A stretch of 41,118 bases of DNA from an uncultured Candidatus Saccharibacteria bacterium (GTDB taxonomy: Bacteria > Patescibacteriota > Minisyncoccia > Phycocordibacterales > GWA1-40-21): positions 1-41,118 of the forward strand of contig CAZOXG010000002.1 of assembly GCA_964583845.1 (NCBI GenBank). The letters run 5' to 3'. Under the pieces are notes generated by a model. The model did no database searches. It had not been told where the DNA came from and saw nothing but the letters and a program-made list of their open reading frames with translations. Within the stretch, counting starts at the first letter, position 1. Each line of letters starts with the position of its first letter. The translations under genes were made by a program, and so were the position numbers. Below are positions 120 to 35,937 of the stretch, piece after piece.

Positions 120-1247
120 CTAGAAAGGACGGTACTTGAGCCTTATGGCACACGGGAAACCGGGTGGGACGTTCTGTTTAACGCCTGACACCATGAACTG
201 GACATCTGTTGCCCCGGCGGGCATGGACAGATGAGTCTGGTCGTCGCTGTCATAGGTCCGGAACTCCTTCGGATATCCGCCTTCCATTTTGTAGCAGGCG
301 GTGACGATGAAGCCAGACGACGCGGTTGCCCAGTTGAGATAACACAGACCTCTCTTGACTGGATAACCACTCGACCACTTGTCGGTAACTGTTATTACTG
401 TATCTGCAGGCACTGACTGTGACGGGGGCGTAATGACAATGGTGTTGCCAGCGCCAGACCGTCCCCATTCGATAAACTGCATCACAACTATACAGACTAT
501 CAGCAGCATTAGAAATTCCCAGACGTTGGCGCCGGAGGGTTTAACCTTGCCGGTGCGTACAGCTGAGAATATCAGGAAGACAACAACTGCGATTATAACA
601 ATCGCGAGCCAGTGTTCAGTTACCCAATCTTTCGACGTAGTAAGCCAAGCACTGTTTGTGGACGTAGTCACGTCATTCGTAGTTGCGGTGGCTGTCGAAG
701 GGGTTACGACTTGCGTCGGAACTTCCTTACCAACTCCCACCGCCTTGTTTCCGTAGTGATAGGAGGTCCACATCAGAATCGCAATGATTGCGACAATGAT
801 TGCAGACACGAGCCAATCACGCCAGGTTACTGCAACTCGTCCGACTATTGTTGAAAACCGAGGCCCTGTCCATTTCCGGGTGAGCCAGATAATGAGGCCA
901 CCAACGACAACCGACAGACACCAGGTGGTGTACTTCTTGAAGTCAATGGAAGCACTCTTTTTTGGACTCACATTAGGAACTACAGGAACGACTTGCGTCA
1001 TTTCCTGCGGTTCGACGGGAGTGACGGTCACGACTTGCGCCGTTTCCGCTTCCGCTACCTTAATTGTCGGTGTTGGGTTATCTTGACGGTTTACGACCCA
1101 GAAGGCCGTACCCCAAATCAAAACAACTACGAGGATGGTTACCCATCCTTTGACTGGTTTCGCCGTGACGGTGAGGTACCAGTGTTTGCTGGTGGCCCAG
1201 GCGATGAGCCCGAGCACCAGCAGGGAGAGTACCAGAATCGTATTCAT
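120..1247 (-). CDS. polytopic membrane protein, unknown function (three TM-TM-Thr/Val/Pro-linker repeats plus a ~110-aa Cys-containing C-terminal domain)
   Basis: 375-aa ORF with AAGGAG 8 nt before the ATG. It starts 14 nt after the upstream SPFH-like gene, so the two form an operon. Hydrophobic pattern read from the translation. G+C visibly above the backbone. Confidence 0.7.
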   Translation of the reverse strand: MNTILVLSLLVLGLIAWATSKHWYLTVTAKPVKGWVTILVVVLIWGTAFWVVNRQDNPTPTIKVAEAETAQVVTVTPVEPQEMTQVVPVVPNVSPKKSASIDFKKYTTWCLSVVVGGLIIWLTRKWTGPRFSTIVGRVAVTWRDWLVSAIIVAIIAILMWTSYHYGNKAVGVGKEVPTQVVTPSTATATTNDVTTSTNSAWLTTSKDWVTEHWLAIVIIAVVVFLIFSAVRTGKVKPSGANVWEFLMLLIVCIVVMQFIEWGRSGAGNTIVITPPSQSVPADTVITVTDKWSSGYPVKRGLCYLNWATASSGFIVTACYKMEGGYPKEFRTYDSDDQTHLSMPAGATDVQFMVSGVKQNVPPGFPCAIRLKYRPF

Positions 1248-1261
1248 ACTTCACACTCCTT

Positions 1262-2302
1262 TCAATGTGTACTGCCACTATCGGTAACAGTTGGGGGTTT
1301 GGCGCCGATATACAGATTTGTAAGTTGCGGCGTATTCTTGAGTTGCATGCCGAGCATGGCTAGACTAACATCCGTTCCCGGGGGGAGGTTGTCAATCAGG
1401 GCTTTGATTTCGGCCTTGGTGGCGTCGCCACGAGCCGTACCAAGGCGTTGGATCTGAGCGGCTTGAGCAATAGATTCAATTTCCAGAATCTTTGCTGCGT
1501 TGTCAGCTATCTTTCTTTGGCGCTCTAGCTCCTGCGCTTGTTTTGTATCTTCCTGGCCGCTCATGGCAACCTTTTGCAAGGTTTTGACCACATCTTTTTC
1601 AGTGAGATCAACACCCGTTCGTGATAGGGCTATTATTTCAAGTCCTGTTTGTTCTTCAATCTGAGTAGTGAAGGACCCTGCGGGCGCCGGTGGGGGCAAG
1701 GTTACTTTTAGGTATTCGCGGAGAGCTACTGCAATATCGCATTCTGTGCCGTTATACATAACCTTGCCATTGTAGACAAGCATGATGTTGTCTTGCGTAC
1801 CGATGATGCTTGTCATCGCCGCATTGATGATACCTAGGATGACTTTTTTAATTTCATCCTCACCGACAAGAAACATAGCCGTGTAAGCTTGTTTCGTTTC
1901 GGTTGTTAGGTTGAAGTGAAACACAAAGGGGACACCTTTAAGTTCCACTGGCAACGTCTCAAGATTCTCAAACACTTGACGATACTTCATTTTCAGAATC
2001 CTGCCCTTATTGGGAATCAGGCCCATGAAGAAATATCCGGTCGTGTGGGCAAACAGTGCACGAAGCGGTCCGACGGGGGCACCTTTTGGCTGACGATCAC
2101 CATTCTGGTCAAAGTGTTTGTCCTTTAACCCACAGTTAATCTCTAGGAGATTTCCCGCTTTGTTGGTGATCGCAATCACCGTGCCTTCTGGCCGTTCGGT
2201 GAATAGTGCGGGAAGCTTTTTGGGGAGCTTGAAAAGCACCCAGAAAGTTAAGACAAAAAACAGAAACCAGAAACCGATAAATAAGTAAGTAAACATGACC
2301 AT
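1262..2302 (-). CDS. SPFH/band-7-like membrane protein (by-eye call)
   Basis: 346-aa ORF with AAGGAGA 6 nt before the ATG. N-terminal anchor FIGFWFLFFVLTFWVLF, a globular middle, and a C-terminal Ala/Gln/Glu-rich helix QAQELERQRKIADNAAKILEIESIAQAAQIQ as in SPFH tails. Confidence 0.5.
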   Translation of the reverse strand: MVMFTYLFIGFWFLFFVLTFWVLFKLPKKLPALFTERPEGTVIAITNKAGNLLEINCGLKDKHFDQNGDRQPKGAPVGPLRALFAHTTGYFFMGLIPNKGRILKMKYRQVFENLETLPVELKGVPFVFHFNLTTETKQAYTAMFLVGEDEIKKVILGIINAAMTSIIGTQDNIMLVYNGKVMYNGTECDIAVALREYLKVTLPPPAPAGSFTTQIEEQTGLEIIALSRTGVDLTEKDVVKTLQKVAMSGQEDTKQAQELERQRKIADNAAKILEIESIAQAAQIQRLGTARGDATKAEIKALIDNLPPGTDVSLAMLGMQLKNTPQLTNLYIGAKPPTVTDSGSTH

Positions 2303-2340
2303 TCTCCTTTTTCCAAGACACTATTGTTTTGACAAGGAAT

Positions 2341-2362
2341 GAAGGCTGGCAAACAGGCCAAA
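2341..2362 (-). promoter_or_regulatory. conserved 5'-leader hairpin motif, copy 1 of 2
   Basis: Minus strand reads TTGGCCTGTTTGCCAGCCTTCA (stem TGGC/GCCA, loop CTGTTT). The homologous motif at 29901-29922 has stem TAGC/GCTA, a compensatory G-C to A-T change. Confidence 0.55.
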
Positions 2363-2407
2363 CTTCAACATCTGAAAGGGCATATAGGCTCCTTTCTTCC
2401 GTATTCT

Positions 2408-2436
2408 ATATTAGCACAAAAGAAGACTAAAGTCAA
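2408..2436 (-). promoter_or_regulatory. sigma70-type promoter of the SPFH-like operon
   Basis: Minus strand TTGACT (2431-2436), 17-nt spacer, TAATAT (2408-2413). Leaves a ~100-nt leader. Confidence 0.6.
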
Positions 2437-2506
2437 GGTAGAAGTGGGGAAGTTGGAATAGCTGGATTGGTGGGGAAATAGGGCTAGTATTAAGGTGCGT
2501 TTAGGG

Positions 2507-2537
2507 TTGACTTTATAATCAAAATAAAGAATAATCT
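2507..2537 (+). promoter_or_regulatory. possible promoter of tRNA-Leu(UAG)
   Basis: TTGACT at 2507-2512 and an AT-rich -10 candidate (ATAATC/TAATCT) about 18-19 nt downstream. The tRNA starts at 2546. Confidence 0.4.
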
Positions 2538-2545
2538 ATGTTAAT

Positions 2546-2626
2546 GCGCGGGTGGTGAAATGGCAGACACGCTAGCCTTAGGAGCTAGTGCCGCAAGGCA
2601 TGGAGGTTCAAGTCCTCTCCCGCGCA
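2546..2626 (+). tRNA. tRNA-Leu (anticodon UAG), type II with long variable arm, no encoded CCA
   Basis: Cloverleaf folded by hand: acceptor GCGCGGG/CCCGCGC, anticodon stem CTAGC/GCTAG, loop CTTAGGA, variable stem GCC/GGC, T arm GGAGG-TTCAAGT-CCTCT. Confidence 0.93.
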
Positions 2627-2659
2627 CAAACAAACTGACTAAAAGTCAGTTTTTTGTTG
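2627..2659. terminator. bidirectional terminator hairpin between the tRNA and mini-element copy A
   Basis: CAAACAAACTGAC-TAAAA-GTCAGTTTTTTGTTG: a GC-poor stem flanked by A-run and T-run. Confidence 0.6.
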
Positions 2660-2832
2660 CGCGGGAAGCAACCTCTGGGAGAGGTTGCGTGAGGACTTGA
2701 AAGGCGGAGCAAATTTTTGATAGTAGTCAAAAATGCGAGCCGGGGTCGAGAAATTTTACGAGCGACGGCGAGTAAAATATTCGTGACCAAGTCCTCTCCT
2801 TAAAGTCGAGGGAAAGACTCCTCTCCCGCGCA
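2659..2832 (-). mobile_element. gene-3'-end-associated mini-element, copy A (type-1 core), behind tRNA-Leu(UAG)
   Basis: Minus-strand core is GTCACGAATATTTTAC-TCGCCGTCGCTC-GTAAAATTTCTCGACCCCGGCTCG-hairpin-CTCCGCCTTTCAAGTCCTC. Inverted tRNA 3'-end pieces at 2659-2665 and 2691-2701. Direct copies at 2788-2799 and 2818-2832. Confidence 0.8.
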
Positions 2833-2862
2833 TAAGTGAGGACAAGACTGTTAATAATTATT

Positions 2863-2892
2863 TTGCAAAAATACATTGGAAAATGGTATAAT
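2863..2892 (+). promoter_or_regulatory. promoter of the DUF3592-like gene
   Basis: TTGCAA (2863-2868), 18-nt spacer, TATAAT (2887-2892). Confidence 0.55.
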
Positions 2893-2945
2893 TTACTGAT
2901 AGCTGATTGCTTTTGCAACCCCAAATATACAAAAATCATAATATT

Positions 2946-3635
2946 ATGAAAAATAAAATTACTAGTTTGGTTGGCGCCATTTTCTTTTTTCTTGGTATCG
3001 GCATACTTATAGGGGGGATTTTCGAATACAAGAGCAACCAGCAATTCCTTCAATCGTCCCAAAAAAGTACTGGAATTGTTACAGATTTAATTCTTGGTGA
3101 TTCTGTTTACTACCCAGTGCTACAATTCCGTACACTTGCAAATAAGACAATTGATTTTAAATCATCAGTAGGTAGCAATCCTCCCTCGTATCGAGTAGGA
3201 GATACTGTGGAAATTTATTACAATCCGACGGATCCATATTCAGCAAAAATATCTGATTTCTGGTCGAATTGGTTTGGAGTTATAATCACTGGTTTTCTTG
3301 GCACTATATTCACGTTTTTGGGTGGAATATTTCTAGGCAGTATGATCAGATCTAGTATGAAGAAAAAATGGTTGTTACAATATGGAAAAAGGATTTCTTC
3401 CGAATTTCAAAAAGTAGAAATAAATGAAAGTTTCTCTGCTAACGGAATTCATCCTTACATTATCGTAAGTCAGTGGCAAGACCCAGAAACCAGAACAATT
3501 CATATCTTTAAAAGTGAAAATATTATGTATAATCCAGAAAAATATATTACTAATAAAAGTATAGATGTGTTAGTAGATCCCATGAATTGTAAAAAATATT
3601 ATACGGACATTAGTTTCTTGCCAAAGTCAGAGTGA
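2946..3635 (+). CDS. DUF3592-like membrane protein (by-eye call)
   Basis: ORF 2907..3635. The ATG at 2946 gives MKNKITSLVG plus a TM. GDTVEIYYNPTDP and a second TM fit the DUF3592 layout. Backbone-like low G+C. Confidence 0.55.
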   Translation: MKNKITSLVGAIFFFLGIGILIGGIFEYKSNQQFLQSSQKSTGIVTDLILGDSVYYPVLQFRTLANKTIDFKSSVGSNPPSYRVGDTVEIYYNPTDPYSAKISDFWSNWFGVIITGFLGTIFTFLGGIFLGSMIRSSMKKKWLLQYGKRISSEFQKVEINESFSANGIHPYIIVSQWQDPETRTIHIFKSENIMYNPEKYITNKSIDVLVDPMNCKKYYTDISFLPKSE

Positions 3636-3660
3636 AATTATTAATGTACTAAATATCTTC

Positions 3661-3727
3661 TTCCTCTGGTTCGCTGCAGCGACCTCAGTCGAAACTCAGT
3701 ATCGAATTATGGCGCAAAGTGGTGCAC
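3661..3727 (+). repeat. decayed older mini-element remnant (C0)
   Basis: 3702-3727 TCGAATTATGG-CGCAAAG-TGGTGCAC parallels the right arm of copy C1 (TTCGAATCCTAC-TCGCAAG..-TGGGTGCAC). Followed by an old hairpin at 3744-3769 and a tRNA-Lys 3' remnant at 3779-3788. Confidence 0.3.
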
Positions 3728-3778
3728 TATGTGGGCAACAACTTTTGTCTTTTGTGTGCTCAAGACAAAGATTCTATA

Positions 3779-3976
3779 AGTAGGAATTTCTTCCTCGACT
3801 AAAACTTCGTCGTCGGGCCACAAAGGCCACTTCCATTTTCTAACACGGAGTACCGTGAAGAAAATCAGGTCGCTCGGTTTTGTCTGGGCACGCTCTCGCA
3901 TGACTTTCTACTGAAAGTCATTGGCTCCGAGCTTCGAATCCTACTCGCAAGTGATAACATCACTTGCTTGGGTGCA
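3779..3976 (+). mobile_element. mini-element copy C1 (type-2 core variant), behind tRNA-Lys
   Basis: Left arm AGTAGGAATT. The core shares GGTCGCTCGGTTT..TGGGCACGC.TC-hairpin-CTCCGAGCT with copy G2. Right arm is TTCGAATCCTAC, then a 24-nt inserted hairpin, then TGGGTGCA, which is the tRNA-Lys 3' half in inverted orientation. Confidence 0.65.
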
Positions 3977-4014
3977 CAATTAAAAAAACTGCTACGCGCA
4001 GTTTTTTTTAATTG
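3977..4014. terminator. bidirectional terminator shared by copy C1 and tRNA-Lys
   Basis: CAATTAAAAAAACTGC-TACG-CGCAGTTTTTTTTAATTG palindrome. Confidence 0.65.
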
Positions 4015-4087
4015 TGCACCCAGTAGGATTCGAACCTACGACCTTGTCCTTAAGAGGGACCTGCTCTACCAACTGAGCTATGGATGC
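4015..4087 (-). tRNA. tRNA-Lys (anticodon CUU), no encoded CCA
   Basis: Minus-strand cloverleaf: acceptor GCATCCA/TGGGTGC, anticodon loop CTCTTAA, T arm with TTCGAAT loop. Confidence 0.9.
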
Positions 4088-4145
4088 ATTTTTACCTAAT
4101 AAAAGTAACAGTTATTTTAAGAAAAATCAAGTAATTTTGCTTTCA

Positions 4146-4174
4146 TTGACATTTATTGATTTGTAAGGTAATTT
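4146..4174 (+). promoter_or_regulatory. candidate promoter of the 4307 gene
   Basis: TTGACA (4146-4151), 17-nt spacer, TAATTT. The leader contains hairpin TAGCAGAC/GTCTGCTA (about 4206-4243). Confidence 0.45.
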
Positions 4175-4306
4175 AAAAACCAGTTCTTTATATATTATTT
4201 CGCTTTAGCAGACAGTATCTTTATTATATGATTTTGTCTGCTACAGCGAAAAACCCGATGTGGGCTAAGCTGAGCAGTATGTAAACTGCTAAGTAGGAGA
4301 AAGACA

Positions 4307-5014
4307 ATGAAACACTCATCGGCAATCCAAATGCTCAGGTTGTCTGAGCTGATCGCAAAGGGGTCAGAACATGCTTTAGAGAGGATTCTTCGGAATCCTG
4401 GAGTCTTTAAAGACCTTCTTGAGGCGGCTGAAATGAGAGAGGGAGATAATCGCTTTCATGGTCAGTCTCGCTGGGAAATTCGCAAGGCCCTTGGTCTTAG
4501 CAAATATCCAGCACCCGAAGTCTTTCAGATCTCTGTTGATGTTAACCCGTCGGTTAGTATTGAAGATTTGATTGGACTTGGAAAGTATCAGTATGTAAGT
4601 GCTGCTATGCAAGAGTCCATCAAGAACAATTTATTTGCCCGGGCCGAAAAGTCTGGAAAGGTTAAGATTTCTATCCTTCACTTTGATAGGGATATCATTT
4701 CCTACAATTCTGGTCACGAAATGTTGGAGGAGGTTGATCCAACTACGATTGAGAAAGAGATGCAAATAATCAATTGCATTCCTTTTAGTCCGAAGTATCG
4801 TCCGTTAAATATTGACGAACTTTTGGCGGTCGGGAGTCAGAAACCCGAGATCCAAAAGAAGTTCCCTTTGGTTGCCTATGGTTTGTTCTCTGGTCAGGCA
4901 AATGTTGCCTTGGACGACAGCGGACCACGACCTGAGCACCGCCGGTTGGTCGAATACAACTTCGACTGTAATGCCTTCTATGACTTCTACCGCATCCTTG
5001 CGGTGGAGACATAA
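4307..5014 (+). CDS. hypothetical protein (higher-GC ORFan)
   Basis: 235-aa ORF with GGAGAAAG 5-6 nt before the ATG. No motif recognised. Weak hairpin plus T-run at 5016-5067. Confidence 0.7.
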   Translation: MKHSSAIQMLRLSELIAKGSEHALERILRNPGVFKDLLEAAEMREGDNRFHGQSRWEIRKALGLSKYPAPEVFQISVDVNPSVSIEDLIGLGKYQYVSAAMQESIKNNLFARAEKSGKVKISILHFDRDIISYNSGHEMLEEVDPTTIEKEMQIINCIPFSPKYRPLNIDELLAVGSQKPEIQKKFPLVAYGLFSGQANVALDDSGPRPEHRRLVEYNFDCNAFYDFYRILAVET

Positions 5015-5121
5015 TCACACATGTTTCTACAACCCGTGCATCTGAATAAGGTGTGTGGGATTTTTTTATGTAAGAATATAATATTAAACATAATGGGGAT
5101 TTGGTGACAAATATTTTCCAA

Positions 5122-5379
5122 GTGCCCAGGATGGGACTCGGTCAGGAATAATTTTCTTATCGACACAAGAAAATTTTCACGACCATTACATGGTCAGTAC
5201 ACCATTTTGGATATTTTATTTCGTTACACTCATAAAATATCTCACAAGGTCTTTCGGTTGGGTCCCTTACCCAATCCTCAACCTGCCTCGCGGCTGGGCA
5301 TTGCTATACCCAGACCCTCTGCCTAAGAAAAATCGGCAAAGGGTACGCTCCGCTTTTCGAGTTCCACCCTATCGGGCAC
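5122..5379 (+). mobile_element. mini-element copy D1 (composite/nested), outer copy behind tRNA-Leu(UAA)
   Basis: Left arm GTGCCCAGGATGGGACTCG matches the tRNA gene strand at 17/19. Then GTCAGGAATAATTTTCTT-ATCGACAC-AAGAAAATTTTCACGACC. A nested second core-like unit lies at about 5192-5245. Right arm is TTCGAGTTCCACCC-TAT-CGGGCAC. Confidence 0.7.
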
Positions 5380-5618: not shown

Positions 5619-5743
5619 TTGAGGCCTGTGCAGAATGGTCAGGAATATTTTGTTCGCCGGCGCTCACAAAATTTCACGACCCTGGCTCGGCCCGGCTGAT
5701 TGCTATCAGCCGACTTCGTGGCCTCTGCCTTTCGATTCTGCCC
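5619..5743 (+). mobile_element. mini-element copy B (type-1 core), behind tRNA-Cys
   Basis: Left arm TTGAGGCCTGTGCAGAATG versus tRNA gene strand TTGAGGCCTAGGGCAGAATCG. Core is GTCAGGAATATTTTGT-TCGCCGGCGCTC-ACAAAATTTCACGACCCTGGCTCGGCC-CGGCTGAT/ATCAGCCG-..GGCCTCTGCCTT. Right arm TTCGATTCTGCCC. Confidence 0.8.
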
Positions 5744-9076: not shown

Positions 9077-10291
9077 ATGAAAAAGTTAAAAACCCCAGCC
9101 ATAATATACTGTGATACTGCTGCTACTACACCAGTAGCTTTGCCTGTTCAAAAAGAAATCATCAAGCATTTAAAGGTTACTTTTGGAAATGCTGGTTCTA
9201 TTCATCAAATTGGCGTGACTGCAAATAATGTCCTAAATAATAGTCGTAGGATTGTGGCGGATTTTTTAAAAGCGCGACCTCAAGAAATTATTTTTACTTC
9301 AAGTGGTACAGAATCAAATAATCTGGCTATTATGGGTGTTATTAATGCCTGTTTAGAAAAGGGATATATTGCCAAAGATTTGCATATTATTACTACCAAT
9401 ATTGAACACAGTTCAGTTCGTGAGACATTTTTTCATTTGGAAAAAATTGGCTGCCGGGTAGATTGGCTTTCAGTTGAAAAAAATGGACAATTATCGCCAA
9501 GTGTTTTACGTAAAGCTTTGCGTCCAAATACCATTTTAGTTTCTCTTGCGTATGCTAATTCCGAAATCGGTGTTATTCAACCACTCAGTGATTTAGTAAA
9601 AGAAATTCGTCATGCTCGCAAAACATCCTCAATAAAAATTAGTGAAGATAGTTTGTCTTTTCCATACACTCATCTGGATGCAAGCCAGGCCACACTTTGG
9701 TTGCCGATGAATACTGAAAAACTTGGTGTGGAATTGTTAACTCTTGATGGTCAAAAAATTTATGGTCCGAAAGGGGTTGGTGCGCTGTATATTCGTTCTG
9801 GTGCGACTATTAAATCAATAATGTTTGGAGGTAAGCAAGAAAAAGGTTTAAGACCTGGAACAGAAAATATTCCTCTGATTGCCGGTTTCGCAAAAGCTCT
9901 GACTCTCGTTTCGGCTTTTCAGAAGACTGAACCAGAAAGAATTTTAGCTGTGAGAAACTATTTTGTAAAAAAAATATCCCAAAAGATTCCTGAGGTAATT
10001 ATAAATGGCGATCTTGAAAATCGTTTACCAAATAATGTAAATTTTTCCCTTACTGATTCTGACGCCGAGTATTTGCTATTACAATTGGCAGAAAATGGAA
10101 TTATTTGTTCGGCTAAAAGTGCCTGTTTGGCTGGCGATGCTGGTTCCTACGTTGTTGGTGCTGTATCTGATAACCCGTCGTCCGCTAGATCTTCTTTACG
10201 TTTTACCTTTGGAGATAGTGTTGGTAAAAAGGAAGTTGATAAAATCATCGATGTTTTATCAAAGAATGTGTTTCGGGGTGGATTGATTTAG
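9077..10291 (+). CDS. cysteine desulfurase (class V aminotransferase, NifS/IscS-like)
   Basis: SSGTESNNLAI, PLP-Lys region DGQKIYGPKGVGALYIR, and C-terminal Cys loop SAKSAC. The ATG at 9077 is chosen because the longer ORF start (9011) runs through the upstream terminator. Confidence 0.8.
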   Translation: MKKLKTPAIIYCDTAATTPVALPVQKEIIKHLKVTFGNAGSIHQIGVTANNVLNNSRRIVADFLKARPQEIIFTSSGTESNNLAIMGVINACLEKGYIAKDLHIITTNIEHSSVRETFFHLEKIGCRVDWLSVEKNGQLSPSVLRKALRPNTILVSLAYANSEIGVIQPLSDLVKEIRHARKTSSIKISEDSLSFPYTHLDASQATLWLPMNTEKLGVELLTLDGQKIYGPKGVGALYIRSGATIKSIMFGGKQEKGLRPGTENIPLIAGFAKALTLVSAFQKTEPERILAVRNYFVKKISQKIPEVIINGDLENRLPNNVNFSLTDSDAEYLLLQLAENGIICSAKSACLAGDAGSYVVGAVSDNPSSARSSLRFTFGDSVGKKEVDKIIDVLSKNVFRGGLI

Positions 10292-10317
10292 TCTTCTTTT
10301 TAATCTATTATAACTAT

Positions 10318-15034: not shown

Positions 15035-15082
15035 GAATAGAAAAAATACATTTGTAATTTAGACTTTTTGCATATTTTGCTT

Positions 15083-15199
15083 GGAAAGGATTTGGTCATG
15101 GATAATTCACTAGTCGTCTCTCGTGAATTTCCACGACCCTGACTCGGCCACACTACCTGCTGGCAGTGGCTTCGCGGCCTCCGTCTTTCAAATCCTTCC
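15083..15199 (+). mobile_element. mini-element copy E (type-1 core), behind tRNA-Tyr
   Basis: GGAAAGGATTTG|GTCATGGATAATTCAC-TAGTCGTCTCTC-GTGAATTTCCACGACCCTGACTCGGCC-hairpin-GCGGCCTCCGTCTT|TCAAATCCTTCC. Confidence 0.8.
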
Positions 15200-19338: not shown

Positions 19339-19462
19339 ATCAGATTCGGTCACGACTTTTTCTTTCGCCGTCGCTCAAGAAAAGTCTCGACCCTAGCTCA
19401 GCATTACTCGCTGGAGCTCGTAATAAGCTTGCGCTTTTCGAATCTGAGTGGGCCCGCATATT
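19339..19462 (+). mobile_element. mini-element copy F (type-1 core), behind tRNA-Trp
   Basis: CATCAGATTCG|GTCACGACTTTTTCTT-TCGCCGTCGCTC-AAGAAAAGTCTCGACCCTAGCTCAG-hairpin-CTTGCGCTTT|TCGAATCTGAGTGGGCCCGCATATT. The 26-nt right arm is a perfect inverted copy of the tRNA 3' half. Confidence 0.85.
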
Positions 19463-21598: not shown

Positions 21599-21728
21599 TG
21601 CCGAGAGCGAGACCCGGTTACGAATATTTTTCTTGTTGTCACAAGAAAAATTTCTCGACCCCGGCTCGGCCACTCTCTCTGGTGATAGTGGCTTTGCGGC
21701 CTCCGCCTTTCGAGTCTCTCTCCCGGCA
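21599..21728 (+). mobile_element. mini-element copy G1 (type-1 core), outer copy behind tRNA-Leu(CAA)
   Basis: TGCCGAGAGCGAGACCCG|GTTACGAATATTTTTCTTGT-TGTC-ACAAGAAAAATTTCTCGACCCCGGCTCGGCC-CCACT..AGTGG-CTTTGCGGCCTCCGCCTT|TCGAGTCTCTCTCCCGGCA. Confidence 0.85.
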
Positions 21729-25488: not shown

Positions 25489-25668
25489 TGTATTACTTCT
25501 ATAATTTTTAGGCAAATATTATTGTGATTTTTATATATATACGTCTCTGCGAAACTTTGCGAAGTAGTCCAGAAATCAGAATATCCATTAATACTAATGA
25601 AGACTGAGCTGGATTGCTTCGTCAGAATTCGCAGTGACGACATTCGTTAGTGATTAGTATTTTTACAT

Positions 25669-25714
25669 TAAAAAACCGCTTAGCTTTTCCCAGAGAGGAA
25701 AAGCCAAGCGGTTT
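25669..25714 (-). terminator. terminator of the 25725..26291 gene
   Basis: 18-bp imperfect stem AAACCGCTTAGCTTTTCC/GGAAAAGCCAAGCGGTTT. T-run on the minus strand. Confidence 0.75.
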
Positions 25715-25724
25715 GGCACAACCC

Positions 25725-26291
25725 TTATCCAGGGTGCCAATTAAAGAGACGATGCTTGATGCAGGCGGGTGTATGTCCTTTCCTCGGAATCAAGACAACC
25801 TTCACGGCCTGCAAAGTTTTCGATATGACCGCTACCTCATCCTTGGTCATAAAGTAAGCTGGTACATTGGACTGTTGTCCGTTGACCAACACTTTCTTGG
25901 CTCCACCACGCGTGATAAGGTCGCCGGTACTCGGACAGACCTGTACCATCACAAGATTTGTCTTCGGTGATGAGGCTTGAATGCACCACAGGTGATCCAT
26001 GGCATCCACGACGGCGCCGAAGACCAAGGTCTCGTCGCCATCATTGGATTGACACAGGCCGCGAGTGACAAGCTCTCCCTCAAGCTGGCTCACATTGACG
26101 AAGTCTTTACCGAGAGACTCTGTAGCCAGGCGGAGGATTGCTCTATGAAAGCGTTCGCTTTCGTCAAGAATACCTTGGCAAGTTGGCCGAAGGCAATTTG
26201 GAAACTGGCTGTCGGTTGTCAGGATGGCACTGAGAGTACCATCTACTTCTGCCACCACCAGTATCAAACTGACCGATCTCGTCTCTTTCAT
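25725..26291 (-). CDS. Nudix-fold-like protein with degenerate Nudix box (paralogue B)
   Basis: 188 aa with AAGGAGA before the ATG. GILDESERFHRAILRLATESLG keeps GX5EX7R, but REUXEE has become RLAxES. Alignable by eye to 28268..28795. Confidence 0.6.
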   Translation of the reverse strand: MKETRSVSLILVVAEVDGTLSAILTTDSQFPNCLRPTCQGILDESERFHRAILRLATESLGKDFVNVSQLEGELVTRGLCQSNDGDETLVFGAVVDAMDHLWCIQASSPKTNLVMVQVCPSTGDLITRGGAKKVLVNGQQSNVPAYFMTKDEVAVISKTLQAVKVVLIPRKGHTPACIKHRLFNWHPG

Positions 26292-26372
26292 TTGTTGGTC
26301 TCCTTAGAATTGTTTGTCGTGCAGAAGAATTGCCTTCTGCTAATCCAAAAACACTATAACATTTTTTATTAG

Positions 26373-26424
26373 AAATGGCAAATTAAAACCCCACACCAGG
26401 ACTTCCGAAGGGAAGTGAGTTGGT
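26373..26424 (-). repeat. 52-bp direct repeat, copy 1 (terminator hairpin plus -35 box)
   Basis: AAATGGCAAATTAAAACCCCACACCAGGACTTCCGAAGGGAAGTGAGTTGGT. 49/52 identical to 28199-28250. On the minus strand: hairpin ACTTCC-CTTC-GGAAGT, then GGGGTTTTAATTTGCCA. Confidence 0.85.
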
Positions 26425-26446
26425 TGTGCTGTAACAAACGCCTTAT

Positions 26447-28123
26447 TTATTTTCCTGGAGAAAAAGCCTGATCAAAATCAATTAAATATAACCTAGGAAA
26501 ACGATTAAAATCTGGTTTACCATTTTCATTTCTAAAAAATCTTAGACAAAAGTTGCCATCGTGAGGGTGACCATGTTCAAAATTTATACTACTTAACACC
26601 GCCTTTATTTTATTTTTTTGTTCTTCAAGTTCAGATTCAAATTTAGTTGATATTTCTTTCCACCTAGCCAAACTAAGATCTAAGACTCCACTATACACCC
26701 TAATTGAACCATTCTTATTAATGCTAAATGATTGGATTGGTTCTATTGGAACGTAATCAAAACCAGCCTGCTGCCACAGTTTCCAATTCTCATATATAGA
26801 TTGCCACGATAGAAAAGCTTCTGGTGTAATTTCTCTTATTATCGTTTTGTCTTTTAAGTCACCACCAAGTAAAATAGTTTCTGAACCTGTCTTATCAAAA
26901 TTAGCTCGAGAGAATTTTTCTTTTCTTACTGCTCCATTTTTGTATAATGCTGGTTTAATCAAGTATTCTTCTAAACCTTTTTCCTTCATTAATTTATACA
27001 ACCCTTTCCTTTCATTTTTGGGAATATAGTCAATCATTCCAATTGATGAGGTTTGCACTTTAGGATCAACACTTTCTAAACTCTGTCTAATCCTTAGTAA
27101 AACATTCTTCCACAAGGAAGGCTTTTCCGGCTCAGAGACAAAATTAATGTTATCAACTGATAGTATTTGAATCTCTAGATTTGAATGAGACAAACCTTCC
27201 CTGATAAGACTAGCTCTCTCATTTACAGGAGCAAACCGAATATTTTCAGCCGATATTTTTTGTACTTCTGGGTTAGGGTGATTAAAACCGTCTTTAATAA
27301 GGAGTGTTATTTCATCTTTGGGAGCATCGCCCATCATTAAAGCTGATGTAATTTGAACTTCTGGATTTGAATGAGACAAACCTTCTCTAATAAGTGTTGA
27401 TCTTTCGTCTCCAAATGCTCTTTCAATTATTTTAACTGATTCCACCTGAACTTTTGGGTTAGGGTGTTTTAAACATTCTCTAATAAGATTAGCTATCATA
27501 TTTTCAGGAGCAAACCGAATATTTTCAGCCGATATTTTTTGTACTTCTGGATTAGAGTGATTTAAACCTTCTTCAATAAGCGATAATGTTTTAGTTACTG
27601 GAGCATTGTCCAATAATTTGGCCGATGTAATTTGAACTTCGGAGTCAGTACTATTTAATCCATTTTTGATTTTTTGTAAAACAATTTCTCGCAGAAAACC
27701 CTTTTGAGTTTTAGGTGCAAACCAAATAGTTTCAGACGAAATTATTTGTACTTCTGGGTTGAGATGACTTAGACCTTCTTCAATAAGTGGTGTTATCTCA
27801 TCTTCTGATATAAATTTAATAGCCTCGGCTGCTGCTTTTTGCACCTCAGGGTCAGAATTAGCTAAGCCTTCTTTAATAAGAAAGAATGTTTTTGAGTTAG
27901 GAGTGAATAGACTTTCATTAATTTCATGCACCAAAGGTGAAATTTTCTTCTCTTTATTTTTAGTAATAATTAAATCAATCTTCTCATTATTTCTAATTTT
28001 ATCCTCTTTGTATCTATCAAAACTATGTTCAGTTATCTGATTTTGCCCAGGAATTTCATACATTTTCAAATATTTTGGTAGTGGTGACTCAGGACTTTCA
28101 ATTTTTTGCACAGGTCTTTCCAT
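26447..28123 (-). CDS. HEAT-repeat protein (about 9 repeats of ~31 aa) with a C-terminal protein-kinase-like domain
   Basis: Repeats of EGLxHxNPEVQxxSAxxIxFAP. The C-terminus has HGHPHDGNFCL (catalytic-loop-like) and LYLIDFDQA (DFD). The ATG at 28123 is preferred (MERPVQ). Low G+C. Confidence 0.7.
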   Translation of the reverse strand: MERPVQKIESPESPLPKYLKMYEIPGQNQITEHSFDRYKEDKIRNNEKIDLIITKNKEKKISPLVHEINESLFTPNSKTFFLIKEGLANSDPEVQKAAAEAIKFISEDEITPLIEEGLSHLNPEVQIISSETIWFAPKTQKGFLREIVLQKIKNGLNSTDSEVQITSAKLLDNAPVTKTLSLIEEGLNHSNPEVQKISAENIRFAPENMIANLIRECLKHPNPKVQVESVKIIERAFGDERSTLIREGLSHSNPEVQITSALMMGDAPKDEITLLIKDGFNHPNPEVQKISAENIRFAPVNERASLIREGLSHSNLEIQILSVDNINFVSEPEKPSLWKNVLLRIRQSLESVDPKVQTSSIGMIDYIPKNERKGLYKLMKEKGLEEYLIKPALYKNGAVRKEKFSRANFDKTGSETILLGGDLKDKTIIREITPEAFLSWQSIYENWKLWQQAGFDYVPIEPIQSFSINKNGSIRVYSGVLDLSLARWKEISTKFESELEEQKNKIKAVLSSINFEHGHPHDGNFCLRFFRNENGKPDFNRFPRLYLIDFDQAFSPGK

Positions 28124-28198
28124 AGAAGAAATATAGCATAAAACTATATTAGTTTCGAATTTTGATAAAATATAAAAGTGTATATGGTAAGGCAATAA

Positions 28199-28250
28199 AA
28201 ATGGCAAATTAAAACCCCACACCAGGACTTCCGAGGGGAAGTGAACTGGT
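28199..28250 (-). repeat. 52-bp direct repeat, copy 2
   Basis: See 26373-26424. Lies 17 nt past the stop of 28268..28795 and supplies TTGCCA as the -35 box for the HEAT gene. Confidence 0.85.
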
Positions 28251-28267
28251 GGAGGTTTGGGATAGAC

Positions 28268-28795
28268 TCATGATAGTTTGTTGAAGAGTTCGGAGGCAAT
28301 TTTGACCGCCTTGAGTTCGTCATCAAACATGGTGATACCCTCAAGTGGGGCTCCGGCCATCATCATTTCCTTGGTTGCGATTCTCACGTTGGGCAGGTCT
28401 CCCCGGTGGATTTTGACCAGGCCACCGGTGCTGGGGCCGAGTCTAATCCAGTCGAGCGATTCAAGGGAGACCACACACCCGAAGGTGGTCATCTCTTTCT
28501 TGTTAGTGACCAAAGTCACCAATTCGGTCAGTCCGGTTTCTTCGCCAATCCTTTTGATGTGGTCGGCGAAATGTGGGCCGAGTTCTTCTTCAATTTCACG
28601 CATCAGACCGGCAATAGGAGTTTCGCCGGCATTGAGTTTGCCGTGGCAAGTGACTTGTGTCACGCCAGCAAAGAGTGAAGGGCTCATTTCACGTTCGGTG
28701 CTATAGGCACCACGTTTTTGACCAATCGCGACCATCTGTCCATCAAGGTCCGTGATGAGAACAATCAGTCCGGCACCTTTTTCTTTTTCCGACAT
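28268..28795 (-). CDS. Nudix hydrolase-like protein with intact Nudix box (paralogue A, higher GC)
   Basis: 175 aa with AAGGAGA 7 nt before the ATG. GKLNAGETPIAGLMREIEEELG fits GX5EX7REUXEEXG. Confidence 0.75.
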   Translation of the reverse strand: MSEKEKGAGLIVLITDLDGQMVAIGQKRGAYSTEREMSPSLFAGVTQVTCHGKLNAGETPIAGLMREIEEELGPHFADHIKRIGEETGLTELVTLVTNKKEMTTFGCVVSLESLDWIRLGPSTGGLVKIHRGDLPNVRIATKEMMMAGAPLEGITMFDDELKAVKIASELFNKLS

Positions 28796-28831
28796 GGAGT
28801 GTCTCCTTTGTATGGTTCAGTGAACAGTGTC

Positions 28832-28851
28832 ATCAGAAAACGTTTTCTGAT
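28832..28851. promoter_or_regulatory. perfect 20-bp palindrome in the leader of 28268..28795
   Basis: ATCAGAAAACGTTTTCTGAT, lying between the candidate promoter (TTGACA near 28885) and the RBS. Confidence 0.5.
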
Positions 28852-28904
28852 CAAGTTCGTTCATTTACACAATATAACTAATTTCATCTTTGTCAAATAT
28901 ATAT

Positions 28905-28943
28905 AAAAAAACACCTCAAGGCCGATAGGTCAGCCTTGAGGTT
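28905..28943 (-). terminator. terminator of 28957..29850
   Basis: ACCTCAAGGC-10 nt-GCCTTGAGGT. T-run on the minus strand. Confidence 0.8.
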
Positions 28944-28956
28944 GAGGACATATGAA

Positions 28957-29850
28957 TTATCCTTTCTTGTCATTCGCATTCGTTGGACGGTGATAGTCTT
29001 CCATCACCACGTCCCGGATTTGATACCGGGTGATTTCCTTGTTGATGTTCATGGGTAGGCTCGGAAAGCCAATGCAATCCTTGCCGATTATCAACTGGTA
29101 GGGCTCGTTGGTCGAGTTCTCGTACCAGATGGGATCATAGGTGATGTAGCGATGCTTCACCCAGTCCTTTTCTGGTTTGTCGACCAACTCGAGTTCCCAC
29201 TTTTTGAACAGCGTAAAGGCCCAGCCGTGTTTCTTGCCATCGTCGGTAACGACGGCGAAGATACAGGGAACGTCGCCGAAGGTACAGCCGGTGCCGGGAA
29301 TGTTACCGGACCTGTGAACACGGCCAGCTCCCGATGTCGCTGCGAAGCTTTCAATCACCACGGCGTCTTTGGGAAAGGCGTACAGGTCGGCGATGTCGCG
29401 ACCCTTGTTCAGTTCCCAAAGCGGCAGAAGACAGGCGCTGCGCTTACATGTTTTGGGGTTCACACCTTCACTGATCACGAGCTGAGGCAGTTCGTGAAAA
29501 TAAATGACGGCGTTCGGTGGCACGCAAGGGAGAGTTTGCAGTTTTCCGTCATGGCAGACGAGGGTACTGCAAGCATAACGCATGAGTCTGAACTCTGGCC
29601 AGGTGGATTCGTAGTAAACCGTGACGACGTGGGGTTCGCACTCTGACACCTCCAGTTCTATCGCTTTCTTGCCGGTCGGGAACTCCATCGGTATAACGAC
29701 CTTGCTCCGGTCGTTCCAGATCTCGATACCTCCCTTGGCCTTCTTGGCATAGGCCACATTGTTCTTGTTGGGCGAACCGGGAATAAAGAACTTCACCGGA
29801 TCTTTGATGCTCATGGATTCGACTTGGATACGAGTGAATTCCTTCGTCAT
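28957..29850 (-). CDS. hypothetical Cys-rich protein (highest-GC ORFan in the window)
   Basis: 297-aa ORF with AAGGAG 8 nt before the ATG. 12 Cys. No motif recognised. Confidence 0.75.
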   Translation of the reverse strand: MTKEFTRIQVESMSIKDPVKFFIPGSPNKNNVAYAKKAKGGIEIWNDRSKVVIPMEFPTGKKAIELEVSECEPHVVTVYYESTWPEFRLMRYACSTLVCHDGKLQTLPCVPPNAVIYFHELPQLVISEGVNPKTCKRSACLLPLWELNKGRDIADLYAFPKDAVVIESFAATSGAGRVHRSGNIPGTGCTFGDVPCIFAVVTDDGKKHGWAFTLFKKWELELVDKPEKDWVKHRYITYDPIWYENSTNEPYQLIIGKDCIGFPSLPMNINKEITRYQIRDVVMEDYHRPTNANDKKG

Positions 29851-29900
29851 GGTGTGACTCCTTTTCTTTTTACTTTATTGACATTTTACAAACAACACTG

Positions 29901-29922
29901 TGAAAGCTAGCAAACAGGCTAG
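29901..29922 (-). promoter_or_regulatory. conserved 5'-leader hairpin motif, copy 2 of 2
   Basis: Minus strand CTAGCCTGTTTGCTAGCTTTCA. See 2341-2362. Confidence 0.55.
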
Positions 29923-29937
29923 TTTCGGTTCAAAAAC

Positions 29938-29966
29938 ATACTATAACATAATATCTATTTAGTCAA
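29938..29966 (-). promoter_or_regulatory. promoter of 28957..29850
   Basis: Minus strand TTGACT, 17-nt spacer, TAGTAT. Confidence 0.6.
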
Positions 29967-30003
29967 TATAATATAGACAATATATGAATTTTGTTATATT
30001 TAA

Positions 30004-30032
30004 GTTGACAGCAGTAATTATATAGTATATAA
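30004..30032 (+). promoter_or_regulatory. consensus sigma70 promoter (divergent)
   Basis: TTGACA, 17-nt spacer, TATAAT. An exact consensus match. Confidence 0.75.
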
Positions 30033-30100
30033 TTTTTACCGAATTGGTTTCATGTCTGAAGGCATGGAATAAGAAGCTTCAATTTTTAAGGAGACAGAAA

Positions 30101-30307
30101 ATGTATACGGAAATGCCCAAACAGTCGTCTACTTTCATGGAACTAACAGTCTTCACTACCGGTTTTTTGGTCGGTATCTGGAGTCTGGGAATTGCTGAAC
30201 TGCGTTTCTGGGACACCGAAAGGCGTCGCGCCTTGTTCTATGTTTCCGTTACGGAACTTTACGGTCTTCAGGCCAGCATTCTATTTCTCGGTACCTACCA
30301 ACGGTAG
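30101..30307 (+). CDS. 68-aa single-TM protein
   Basis: AAGGAGA 7 nt before the ATG at 30101 (in frame within track ORF 30044..30307). TM is LTVFTTGFLVGIWSLGIA. Two terminator hairpins follow. Confidence 0.6.
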   Translation: MYTEMPKQSSTFMELTVFTTGFLVGIWSLGIAELRFWDTERRRALFYVSVTELYGLQASILFLGTYQR

Positions 30308-30371
30308 TGTACATCAAGCCATCCGGCTCATCGGTCCCTCAAGGATCGGAGCTGGGTGGTTTTTTAATTAA

Positions 30372-30409
30372 TACCGCCCGGCTCGCAAAGCGAGCCGGGC
30401 GGTATTTTA
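30372..30409 (+). terminator. intrinsic terminator (second of two)
   Basis: TACCGCCCGGCTCG-CAAAG-CGAGCCGGGCGGTA followed by TTTTA. A weaker hairpin plus T-run lies at about 30322-30365. Confidence 0.75.
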
Positions 30410-30411
30410 AT

Positions 30412-30495
30412 TTATTTTGTGTCTGCAACCTCAGCCAGTTTATGTGGATTATGATTAGGACAATTCTTATCACTACATCTATCTGGTATGGTCTT
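30412..30495 (-). pseudogene. displaced 3'-terminal fragment of topA (27 codons plus stop)
   Basis: Minus-strand translation is KTIPDRCSDKNCPNHNPHKLAEVADTK*. The first 20 aa are identical to the end of intact TopA, with 12/60 nt different and all differences synonymous. Confidence 0.8.
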
Positions 30496-30497
30496 TG

Positions 30498-30628
30498 GTC
30501 ACAAATATTTTCTCGCCGTCGCTCAAAAATTTTGCCGACCCCGGCTCAGTATTGCTCGTTGCTACTCGCAATATACTTCCGCCTCACAAAAACTAAAAAC
30601 AGACAGCGAAGACTGTCTGTTTCTTACA
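30498..30628 (+). mobile_element. mini-element copy H (type-1 core plus terminator), behind topA
   Basis: GTCACAAATATTTTC-TCGCCGTCGCTC-AAAAATTTTGCCGACCCCGGCTCAG-TATTGC..GCAATA-TACTTCCGCCTCAC, then the AAACAGACAG-6 nt-CTGTCTGTTT hairpin (30597-30622) directly before the topA stop. Confidence 0.85.
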
Positions 30629-35892: not shown

Positions 35893-35937
35893 AAATAAAG
35901 AGCGTGGGTTGGCTTTGCCAACCCACGCTCTTTATTT
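35893..35937 (+). terminator. intrinsic terminator
   Basis: AAATAAAGAGCGTGGGTTGGC-TT-TGCCAACCCACGCTCTTTATTT (imperfect palindrome). Confidence 0.8.

Follow-up and report, generated by a model that had tools for sequence, protein, structure and literature searches.

Do the leaders of two unrelated genes in an uncultured bacterium carry one and the same regulatory RNA hairpin? The question is raised by a stretch of 41,118 nucleotides (nt) from a Candidatus Saccharibacteria bacterium (assembly GCA_964583845.1, contig CAZOXG010000002.1, positions 1 to 41,118; the whole stretch that was analysed is hereafter called the window). A preliminary description of this DNA had reported that a gene for a protein of 344 amino acids (aa) and a gene for a protein of 297 aa, both on the minus strand, share a homologous 5' leader with a compensatory change in a hairpin. 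We found that the shared element is a stem-loop of 25-26 nt on the minus strand, present in the leaders of both genes, with pairing that appears to be kept by compensatory change. The two copies may act as a cis-acting RNA hairpin, restricted to this lineage, through which both mRNAs receive the same post-transcriptional input, a reading which, on the strength of sequence comparison, we put at a probability of about 0.5.

Structure and covariation of the shared hairpin

The two copies, referred to as c1 (leader of the 344-aa gene) and c2 (leader of the 297-aa gene), have the following parts:

2341-2366, minus strand: hairpin c1; outer stem 2363-2366/2341-2344, unpaired U 2362, unpaired C 2345
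2357-2361/2346-2350, minus strand: inner stem of c1, with the loop CUGUUU at 2351-2356
29902-29926, minus strand: hairpin c2; outer stem 29923-29926/29902-29905, bulged C 29906
29918-29922/29907-29911, minus strand: inner stem of c2, with the loop CUGUUU at 29912-29917

Each hairpin consists of an outer stem of 4 base pairs (bp), GAAR/YUUC, an inner stem of 5 bp, a CUGUUU loop and an unpaired C on the 3' side. This C sits between the stems, five pairs below the loop, and faces an unpaired U in c1 and nothing in c2. The cores of the two copies are TGGCCTGTTTGCCAGCCTTCA at 2340-2360 and TAGCCTGTTTGCTAGCTTTCA at 29901-29921 (both minus strand). They were the sole matches in the window at ≤3 mismatches, with no match in 100 shuffles of the window, and a pattern search of the whole genome at ≤3 mismatches returned the two cores only. 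The hairpin motif had been recognised in the preliminary description and is present, but it is longer than was described there: the blocks TTGAA and GC(C/T)TTCA, listed apart from it, are the two arms of the 4-bp outer stem. The G-C to A-T compensatory change that had been noticed in the stem is likewise present, and beyond it two further pairs differ between c1 and c2 yet stay paired. The two arms of each copy thus change together, and all five differing stem bases keep a pair, while the loop, the unpaired C and the two loop-closing pairs stay fixed between c1 and c2. RNAfold gave exactly the 9-bp structures, at -11.4 kcal/mol for c1 and -8.4 kcal/mol for c2. Both hairpins lie 44-51 nt upstream of the start codon and downstream of promoter-like sites.

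A third sequence was available from the sister locus of the 344-aa gene (L011), whose encoded protein is 86% identical and whose upstream region is about 86% identical to the window over 259 columns. The sister hairpin is GAAGATTGGTCTGTTTACCAACCTTC (L011 462-487). The four substitutions that separate it from c1 in 26 nt comprise one at an unpaired position (U to A), two that make up one compensated pair (the innermost, loop-closing pair, C-G to U-A) and one that turns a U.G pair into U-A; the loop is unchanged. All nine pairs therefore form in c1, in c2 and in the sister ortholog of c1, and the claim that the shared hairpin is kept by compensatory change gained support when this third sequence was added to the first two. 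In a simulation of four random substitutions per 26 nt with a transition share of 0.67 (the share observed between the window and sister lineages was 117/183), all nine pairs survived with P of 0.11, and all pairs survived together with at least one double change with P of 0.027. Across c1, the sister and c2, 27 of the 27 cells were paired; four of the nine pairs were changed on both sides and five were invariant. Sliding the partners by 1-3 columns, as a control for pairing, left 19-48% paired with no double change, and the observed pairing and double-change values were matched by 11 of 500 shuffles. What these three sequences show is the motif itself, its ability to fold and the paired changes, and in the searches described below it occurred in these two leaders only.

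Relation of the two copies and search for others

We built a covariance model from c1 and the sister hairpin only and ran it unfiltered over the whole window. The best non-self match was c2 (18.8 bits, E 0.007); its alignment to the model keeps all nine pairs and lacks one base, opposite the unpaired C. The third-best match was a perfect palindrome with a 15-bp stem at 35899-35931, between the SerRS gene and the next one; it ranked so high because of its UUGGC/GCCAA core, and is probably a terminator. A census of all sites in the genome able to form this architecture with a 6-nt loop gave 2,077 sites. The nearest neighbour of c1 among them is c2, with agreement at 19 of 24 positions; the next site agrees at 15 of 24, followed by eight sites at 14 of 24. 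Genome-wide, 1,129 of 2.15 million site pairs reach 19/24, and those at 22/24 or above among the pairs listed are repeats or A-run/T-run terminators, many of them register variants of one site. When the census is confined to sense-strand leaders (83 distinct sites), c1-c2 is the sole pair at 18/24 or above that is not an A-run/T-run terminator. We take this as moderate evidence, not proof, that c1 and c2 are related by function or descent. About 28% of the stem bases have changed between c1 and c2, and a 6-nt loop would stay unchanged by chance with P of about 0.14, so the argument from fixation of the loop is weak.

The homology of about 75 nt that had been proposed for the two leaders did not survive alignment. 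MAFFT aligned the core only, the flanks matched no better than shuffles (p 0.24, 0.19 and 0.13), and the AAAAGGAG-ATG block that had been counted as shared is merely the ribosome-binding site of each gene. The two downstream proteins are unrelated (best BLASTP E 2.5). Since the likeness extends neither into the coding regions nor into the flanks, a recent block duplication, which the preliminary description had named, along with a lack of further instances, as what would undo its proposal, does not account for it. The support for the hairpin thus comes from covariation and from its outlier status among leader hairpins, not from sequence similarity.

Further copies were sought with a second covariance model, built from all three sequences. 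In the genome of origin it returned c1 and c2 only, together with one 15-bit match without resemblance. Seven of 39 related genomes had a match at E ≤1, none of them convincing. The one in genome G023 shares the loop, and its inner stem is perfect; it was rejected, as it codes for ...Leu-Lys-Asp-Gly-Leu-Phe-Ala-Ile-Leu... of a membrane protein; the homologue of this protein in the genome of origin (on contig C27) is without the motif. Among 150 other genomes of the order, 18 had a match at E ≤1, the best of 0.006 being at chance level, and the motif was in none of the nine of these 18 that were inspected. A degenerate 20-mer, TRGYCTGTTTRCYARCYTTC, gave 40 matches from many phyla in the GTDB species genomes, with the 9-bp architecture in 0 of the 40, and one chance match in IMG/VR. 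A stricter 21-mer at ≤3 mismatches was found in four of 52 other genomes of the family, always with 3 mismatches and never palindromic; the reversed control was found once. The 10-mer GCCTGTTTGC occurs elsewhere in the genome of origin at C14:10302 and C25:1639, against about 0.65 occurrences expected by chance. Given this expectation, both sites were set aside. At C14 (about 10270-10311) the 10-mer follows an unrelated, perfect 15-bp inverted repeat, which stands directly behind a normal terminator and ahead of the next gene. At C25 the 10-mer is antisense to the start of a gene. This open reading frame has, within its first 13 bases (C25:1636-1648, ATG plus 10), a run of 12 that is perfectly complementary to the loop and the 3' arm of c1; about one such match is expected by chance. 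In the parts of the literature that a full-text search reached, there was neither such a motif nor any cis-regulatory RNA motif specific to bacteria of the Candidate Phyla Radiation (CPR). The regulon that had been envisaged is thus reduced to two loci, as no further instance was found.

The hairpin was also compared with known classes of element. No Rfam family reached its threshold in the window apart from the seven tRNAs; at E ≤5 the two leaders gave rli22 (16.9 bits vs 80) and SNORD108 (25.3 vs 46, on the other strand). Riboswitch aptamers are conserved, multi-helix structures, typically of 35 to over 200 nt, that occur in many genomes and lie upstream of functionally related genes. What we found here instead of a recurring multi-helix aptamer is a single 25-26-nt hairpin with unrelated flanks and no further instances. 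The suggestion of a ligand-binding leader finds no support, the element being far too small and matching no Rfam family. Intrinsic terminators and attenuators, and palindromes of the repetitive extragenic palindromic (REP) and miniature inverted-repeat transposable element (MITE) kinds, resemble c1 and c2 in being stable hairpins in non-coding DNA. However, terminator scans of both regions listed neither hairpin, and no U-tract follows either of them, the 3' tails being AUUCCUUG and ACAGUGUU. Likewise, REP and MITE elements form dispersed families of many copies, whereas this hairpin has two copies in its own genome and none that is convincing in the 52 genomes of the family (by pattern) or the 39 relatives (by model). 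Likeness to a sigma-54 promoter, parS, CIRCE or a LexA box was considered and dropped because of misfits in spacing or sequence.

The two leaders and a possible role of the hairpin

The features of the two leaders and of the genes behind them are as follows:

2408-2436, minus strand: promoter-like site of c1 (TTGACT, 17 nt, TAATAT, with TG before the second hexamer)
2374-2396, minus strand: predicted first hairpin of the c1 leader, in which the Shine-Dalgarno sequence GAAAGG of the upstream open reading frame (uORF) pairs with CCUUUC
2321-2383, minus strand: uORF of 20 codons with its own GGAG, spanning hairpin c1
2334-2338, minus strand: UCCUU directly 3' of hairpin c1, predicted to pair with AAGGA at 2305-2309, the main ribosome-binding site
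1262-2296, minus strand: gene of the 344-aa protein, a membrane-anchored orphan
120-1247, minus strand: gene of a multi-pass membrane protein of 375 aa; it lies downstream of the 344-aa gene
29938-29966, minus strand: promoter-like site of c2 (TTGACT, 17 nt, TAGTAT)
28957-29850, minus strand: gene of the 297-aa protein, an orphan with 9 Cys; first gene after the c2 leader

The promoter-like site of c1 is conserved in the sister, and the transcript predicted from this consensus match would reach the hairpin after about 35 nt. The uORF had been described correctly, with GGAG 6 nt upstream of its ATG. Conservation of its peptide was not observed: a 1-nt insertion after codon 4 in the sister leads to a peptide of 23 residues that is unrelated beyond the first four. 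Read from an internal ATG, the sequences of window and sister give short peptides that are alike, with one synonymous change against four replacements and an earlier stop. The frame shift and the excess of replacements in the sister indicate that the uORF peptide is not under selection. The first hairpin of the leader (2374-2396) and the UCCUU-AAGGA pairing are both kept in the sister without covariation, the latter pairing being confined to c1. Three elements make up the consensus fold of the two c1-type leaders, namely the first hairpin, the shared hairpin and the UCCUU-AAGGA pairing; covariation is confined to the shared hairpin. It is plausible, from this modelled fold, that translation of the uORF would unmask the main start of the 344-aa gene. 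That start is probably ATG 2296, 7 nt after GGAG, rather than ATG 2302, because the latter stands only 1 nt after GGAG and is absent in the sister. The 344-aa and 375-aa genes are probably co-transcribed.

In the second leader, the hairpin would begin about 5 nt from the predicted 5' end, the start site again being placed by a consensus match. Outside the hairpin this leader is unstructured (z +1.04) and contains none of the uORF and masking elements of c1; since masking has no equivalent in c2, it does not explain the shared hairpin. Over the c2 leader, contigs from runs with the sister (X1, X2) and with a third variant (X3) are about 82% identical to the window, and among the differences listed against window 28800-30400 there was no indel inside 29901-29926.

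We propose that a stem free to covary, with loop, loop-closing pairs and unpaired C fixed, may be the recognition site of one trans-acting factor, either an RNA-binding protein or a complementary RNA, which would deliver a common post-transcriptional input to both mRNAs. The first of these would come from an operon of the 344-aa and 375-aa membrane proteins, and the second from an operon that starts with the 297-aa gene, at the head of a variable block between topA and relA. That the hairpins are transcribed, that a factor reads the loop and which way its effect would run are points that we infer from the sequence. The c2 hairpin, being about 5 nt from the predicted 5' end, might also protect its mRNA from 5'-end-dependent decay. 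The c1 hairpin, situated within the uORF between the hairpin that would mask the Shine-Dalgarno sequence of the uORF and the UCCUU that would mask that of the main gene, could in addition determine to what extent translation of the uORF exposes the main ribosome-binding site. The combination of fixed loop and covarying stem would fit a hairpin read by a trans-acting factor better than a pure structural stabiliser, if only weakly so. A narrower version, which we hold doubtful, is that the hairpin is the operator of a dedicated, clade-specific RNA-binding regulator that would couple the membrane-protein operon to the first gene of the topA-relA block.

Operator hairpins in mRNA leaders are well known from the coat-protein operators of phages MS2 and PP7 and from the leader mimics of ribosomal proteins. 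The hairpin studied here resembles the MS2/PP7 type in its short stem, one unpaired base, sequence-fixed apical loop, covarying stem and position in the 5' part of the mRNA; it differs in lying off the start codon and ribosome-binding site of the main genes and in having two sites only. Stem-loops at the 5' end stabilise mRNAs, as in the ompA leader of E. coli and the ermC and aprE leaders of B. subtilis. The predicted location of c2, about 5 nt from the 5' end, is one that protects against 5'-end-dependent decay, whereas c1 would lie about 35 nt in, with another hairpin at the 5' end of its leader, and a stabiliser needs no fixed loop. The iron-responsive element (IRE) has a similar outline, with an upper stem of five pairs, a loop of six bases and one unpaired C that sits five pairs beneath it. 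However, the C is on the 3' side here and on the 5' side in the IRE, the loop is CUGUUU against CAGUGN, and there is no apparent link to aconitase or iron genes. Control by a uORF or leader peptide with masking of the Shine-Dalgarno sequence is known from the ermC and cat leaders. The c1 leader is like these in having a uORF with its own ribosome-binding site and, within the uORF, an anti-Shine-Dalgarno UCCUU predicted to pair with the main Shine-Dalgarno sequence, and unlike them in that its peptide is not conserved.

Several observations weigh against a common regulatory input through the hairpin. Only three sequences were compared, two of them close orthologs (leader about 86% identical); the structure comparison covers c1, the sister c1 and c2. 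The thermodynamic z values against shuffles are unremarkable (-1.95 for c1, -0.45 for c2 and -1.72 for the sister), and the distance of the hairpin from the predicted transcription start differs between the copies (about +35 vs about +5). No candidate binding factor was identified, and no further instance was found in the genome of origin, the 39 relatives, the 150 genomes of the order, GTDB or IMG/VR. Presence in orthologous leaders, a point on which the preliminary description had staked its proposal, is divided: the sister c1 leader carries the motif, but the leader of the 297-aa homologue in genome G008 (45% identity), about 30 nt long, does not. This is the sole other homologue of the 297-aa protein in 53 genomes of the family, and it too stands downstream of topA. 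Other observations agree with a chance resemblance, in which c1 would be a real part of a uORF/anti-Shine-Dalgarno leader and c2 an unrelated 5' stem-loop with a similar stem that happens to share the 10-mer GCCTGTTTGC. The 130-nt upstream regions of the two genes score 28 by local alignment and rank 639th among 101,926 pairs of upstream regions in the genome. Length scaling puts the 18.8-bit match of c2 to the two-sequence model at an E of about 0.1 genome-wide (these E-values are rough), and c2 was missing from the results when the whole genome was searched with that model at default filter settings. Matches to the three-sequence model that are comparable or better lie inside long open reading frames of relatives (27.1 bits in G021 and 24.3 bits in G023, the latter being the Gly-Leu-Phe-Ala stretch with the same loop and inner stem). 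Moreover, the flanks are unrelated, and the finding was drawn from a scan of very many windows. Chance is thus a serious rival, which we nevertheless consider the less likely reading in view of the place of c2 as a clear outlier among the 2,077 sites, the standing of c1-c2 as the sole non-terminator leader pair this alike, the pairing kept by each of the five differing stem bases and the location of both copies in sense-strand leaders, which make up an estimated 3.6% or so of the search space.

A double-stranded DNA operator, in which the inverted repeat would bind a dimeric transcription factor and block RNA polymerase downstream of both promoters, would suit the symmetry of the element, the centre of c2 at about +17 from the predicted start, which is a usual place for a repressor, and the TTGACT and 17-nt spacer common to both promoters. 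The centre of c1, however, is at about +47, and instead of repeating the same half-site, c1, the sister and c2 differ at four of nine half-site positions, which co-vary within each site. The T/G position of c1 also breaks the symmetry in DNA but pairs in RNA, the U.G pair being a C/A mismatch on the opposite strand. No regulator gene is adjacent, the divergent neighbours being a tRNA-Leu gene and a gene for a 68-aa membrane peptide without family match. Because the arms change together at each site, the U.G pair is possible on the sense strand only and no regulator gene adjoins, we favour a sense-strand RNA element over a DNA element, and regard the operator as improbable. The hairpin could also be a functionless relic of a small module that was duplicated or mobile, such as a piece of promoter and leader or a palindrome of the REP/MITE kind. 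Copying of regulatory pieces does occur in this genome (a terminator-like element of 55 nt, at 93% identity, in the same variable block as c2), both loci have dispersed repeats within about 0.6 kb, and both genes are near-orphans in variable DNA. With two copies only, none in relatives and no flanking homology, and with functionless DNA unlikely to keep all nine pairs through five stem-base divergences, a relic is very unlikely as well. Finally, the two copies share a reading frame, Leu-Phe-Ala-Ser-(Leu/Phe)-His-Ser-(Leu/Val), in which several differences, a TCC/AGT serine pair among them, are synonymous or conservative, and c1 has a good ribosome-binding site and an ATG, so that the likeness might have its origin in a small hydrophobic peptide. 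In c2, however, the stretch has no start codon in this frame and is closely preceded by a stop, in the sister the uORF fails to hold its frame or its residues, as described above, and the 5' arm is unlike as peptide and still pairs. A coding origin is thus highly improbable, and the common peptide reading is treated as a by-product of nucleotide identity.

If the hairpin is indeed the operator of a dedicated regulator, it would represent a rare, lineage-specific post-transcriptional mini-regulon in ultra-small (CPR-like) bacteria, for which the literature reached by the search describes no cis-regulatory RNA motif of their own. If it does give both mRNAs a common input, two unrelated near-orphan operons of a reduced genome would be wired to one signal by a 26-nt element. 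This would offer a handle on gene regulation in uncultivated bacteria with small genomes, where regulators are few. Its reach is small, comprising two loci in one species group; the element is a very narrowly distributed small leader hairpin, a new example of a familiar type.

Genomic setting, proteins and other elements

The host is a freshwater bacterium with a tiny genome of 794,435 bp in 44 contigs, with 37% G+C and rated 94% complete. The window is contig C2 of this genome and is ordinary chromosome, with genes for IF-2, RbfA, ClpB, a class-V aminotransferase, alanine racemase, MiaA, ParB, RelA/SpoT, topoisomerase I, DprA, SerRS and Dus, and seven tRNA genes. The 297-aa, NUDIX, HEAT-repeat and 188-aa genes form one block between topA and relA. 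A genome of the same genus (G001) is without this block, relA standing directly after topA (window 25600-30600 compared with L076, G001:C12), so that the word island, which had been applied to both genes, is a fair label for the c2 locus. Genome G008, of another genus, has a different topA-relA block, with homologues of the 188-aa, 297-aa and NUDIX genes. A pair of direct repeats 27.5 kb apart, flanking the island, was considered as attachment (att) sites and rejected, because the intervening DNA encodes IF-2, RbfA, ClpB, alanine racemase, MiaA, ParB and RelA/SpoT.

Both proteins behind the hairpins have few relatives. Among 5.8 billion proteins searched, the 344-aa protein found itself and one relative with 86% identity, and the 297-aa protein one full-length relative (84%) and two fragments (92% and 99%). 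For the 344-aa protein, an exhaustive HMMER search gave three matches, namely the query and two weak local ones; there was no match in Pfam even at E ≤10, none among PDB profiles and no relative in a search of genomic contigs. A search of viral contigs gave no relative of the 297-aa protein. The label SPFH-like, which had been given to the 344-aa protein, is only a lead. It is backed by neighbours in a protein language model, 27 of 30 of which fall in one family set, with Band_7 on 16-31% of the members of the clusters listed, and not by the Pfam, PDB profile and HMMER searches. The language-model neighbours of one window protein were mostly from Minisyncoccota, which, like the small genome, points to an organism of the CPR/Patescibacteria type. 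The predicted structure of the 344-aa protein, of low confidence (predicted local distance difference test, pLDDT, 40.6), shows a membrane helix at the N-terminus, a region of mixed alpha/beta structure and one long helix (233-279). Both this model and that of the 297-aa protein (pLDDT 35.4), which is unassignable, are too poor for fold comparison.

A promoter with the perfect consensus (TTGACA, 17 nt, TATAAT) at 30005-30033 stands ahead of a small gene (window 30005-30307) that is divergent from the c2 leader. This gene probably encodes the 68-aa peptide mentioned above, with a single membrane pass, from ATG 30101 after AAGGAG. The sister has unrelated sequence of equal length in place of positions 30003-30197.

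The 55-nt element of the topA-relA block is present at 26370-26424 and 28196-28250, after the stops of the HEAT-repeat and NUDIX genes. Its two copies are 93% identical; on the minus strand each reads as a two-part stem-loop with a T-run behind it, which makes a copied terminator probable. The duplication indicates that regulatory pieces do get copied within the variable block. A dispersed repeat at 2734-2795, 19360-19434 and 30508-30582, with about 73% identity between copies, occurs near tRNA genes and at a distance of some hundred bases from each of the two motif-bearing promoters; parts of window 2440-5100, including 2734-2795, match many places in two genomes of the same genus (G001 and G002). 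Repeats of 45-62 nt with an internal inverted repeat, each adjoining a tRNA gene, were noted at 5123-5184, 5637-5681, 15077-15138 and 21599-21660. Elsewhere in the genome, a MITE-like family of inverted repeats with G+C-rich palindromic ends occupies many upstream regions (for example C9:18788-18875, C10:23517-23646, C9:24299-24428, C15:3679-3788, C9:7873-8002, C8:8620-8749 and C4:15803-15932), and is the source of the top-scoring pairs of upstream regions in the genome.

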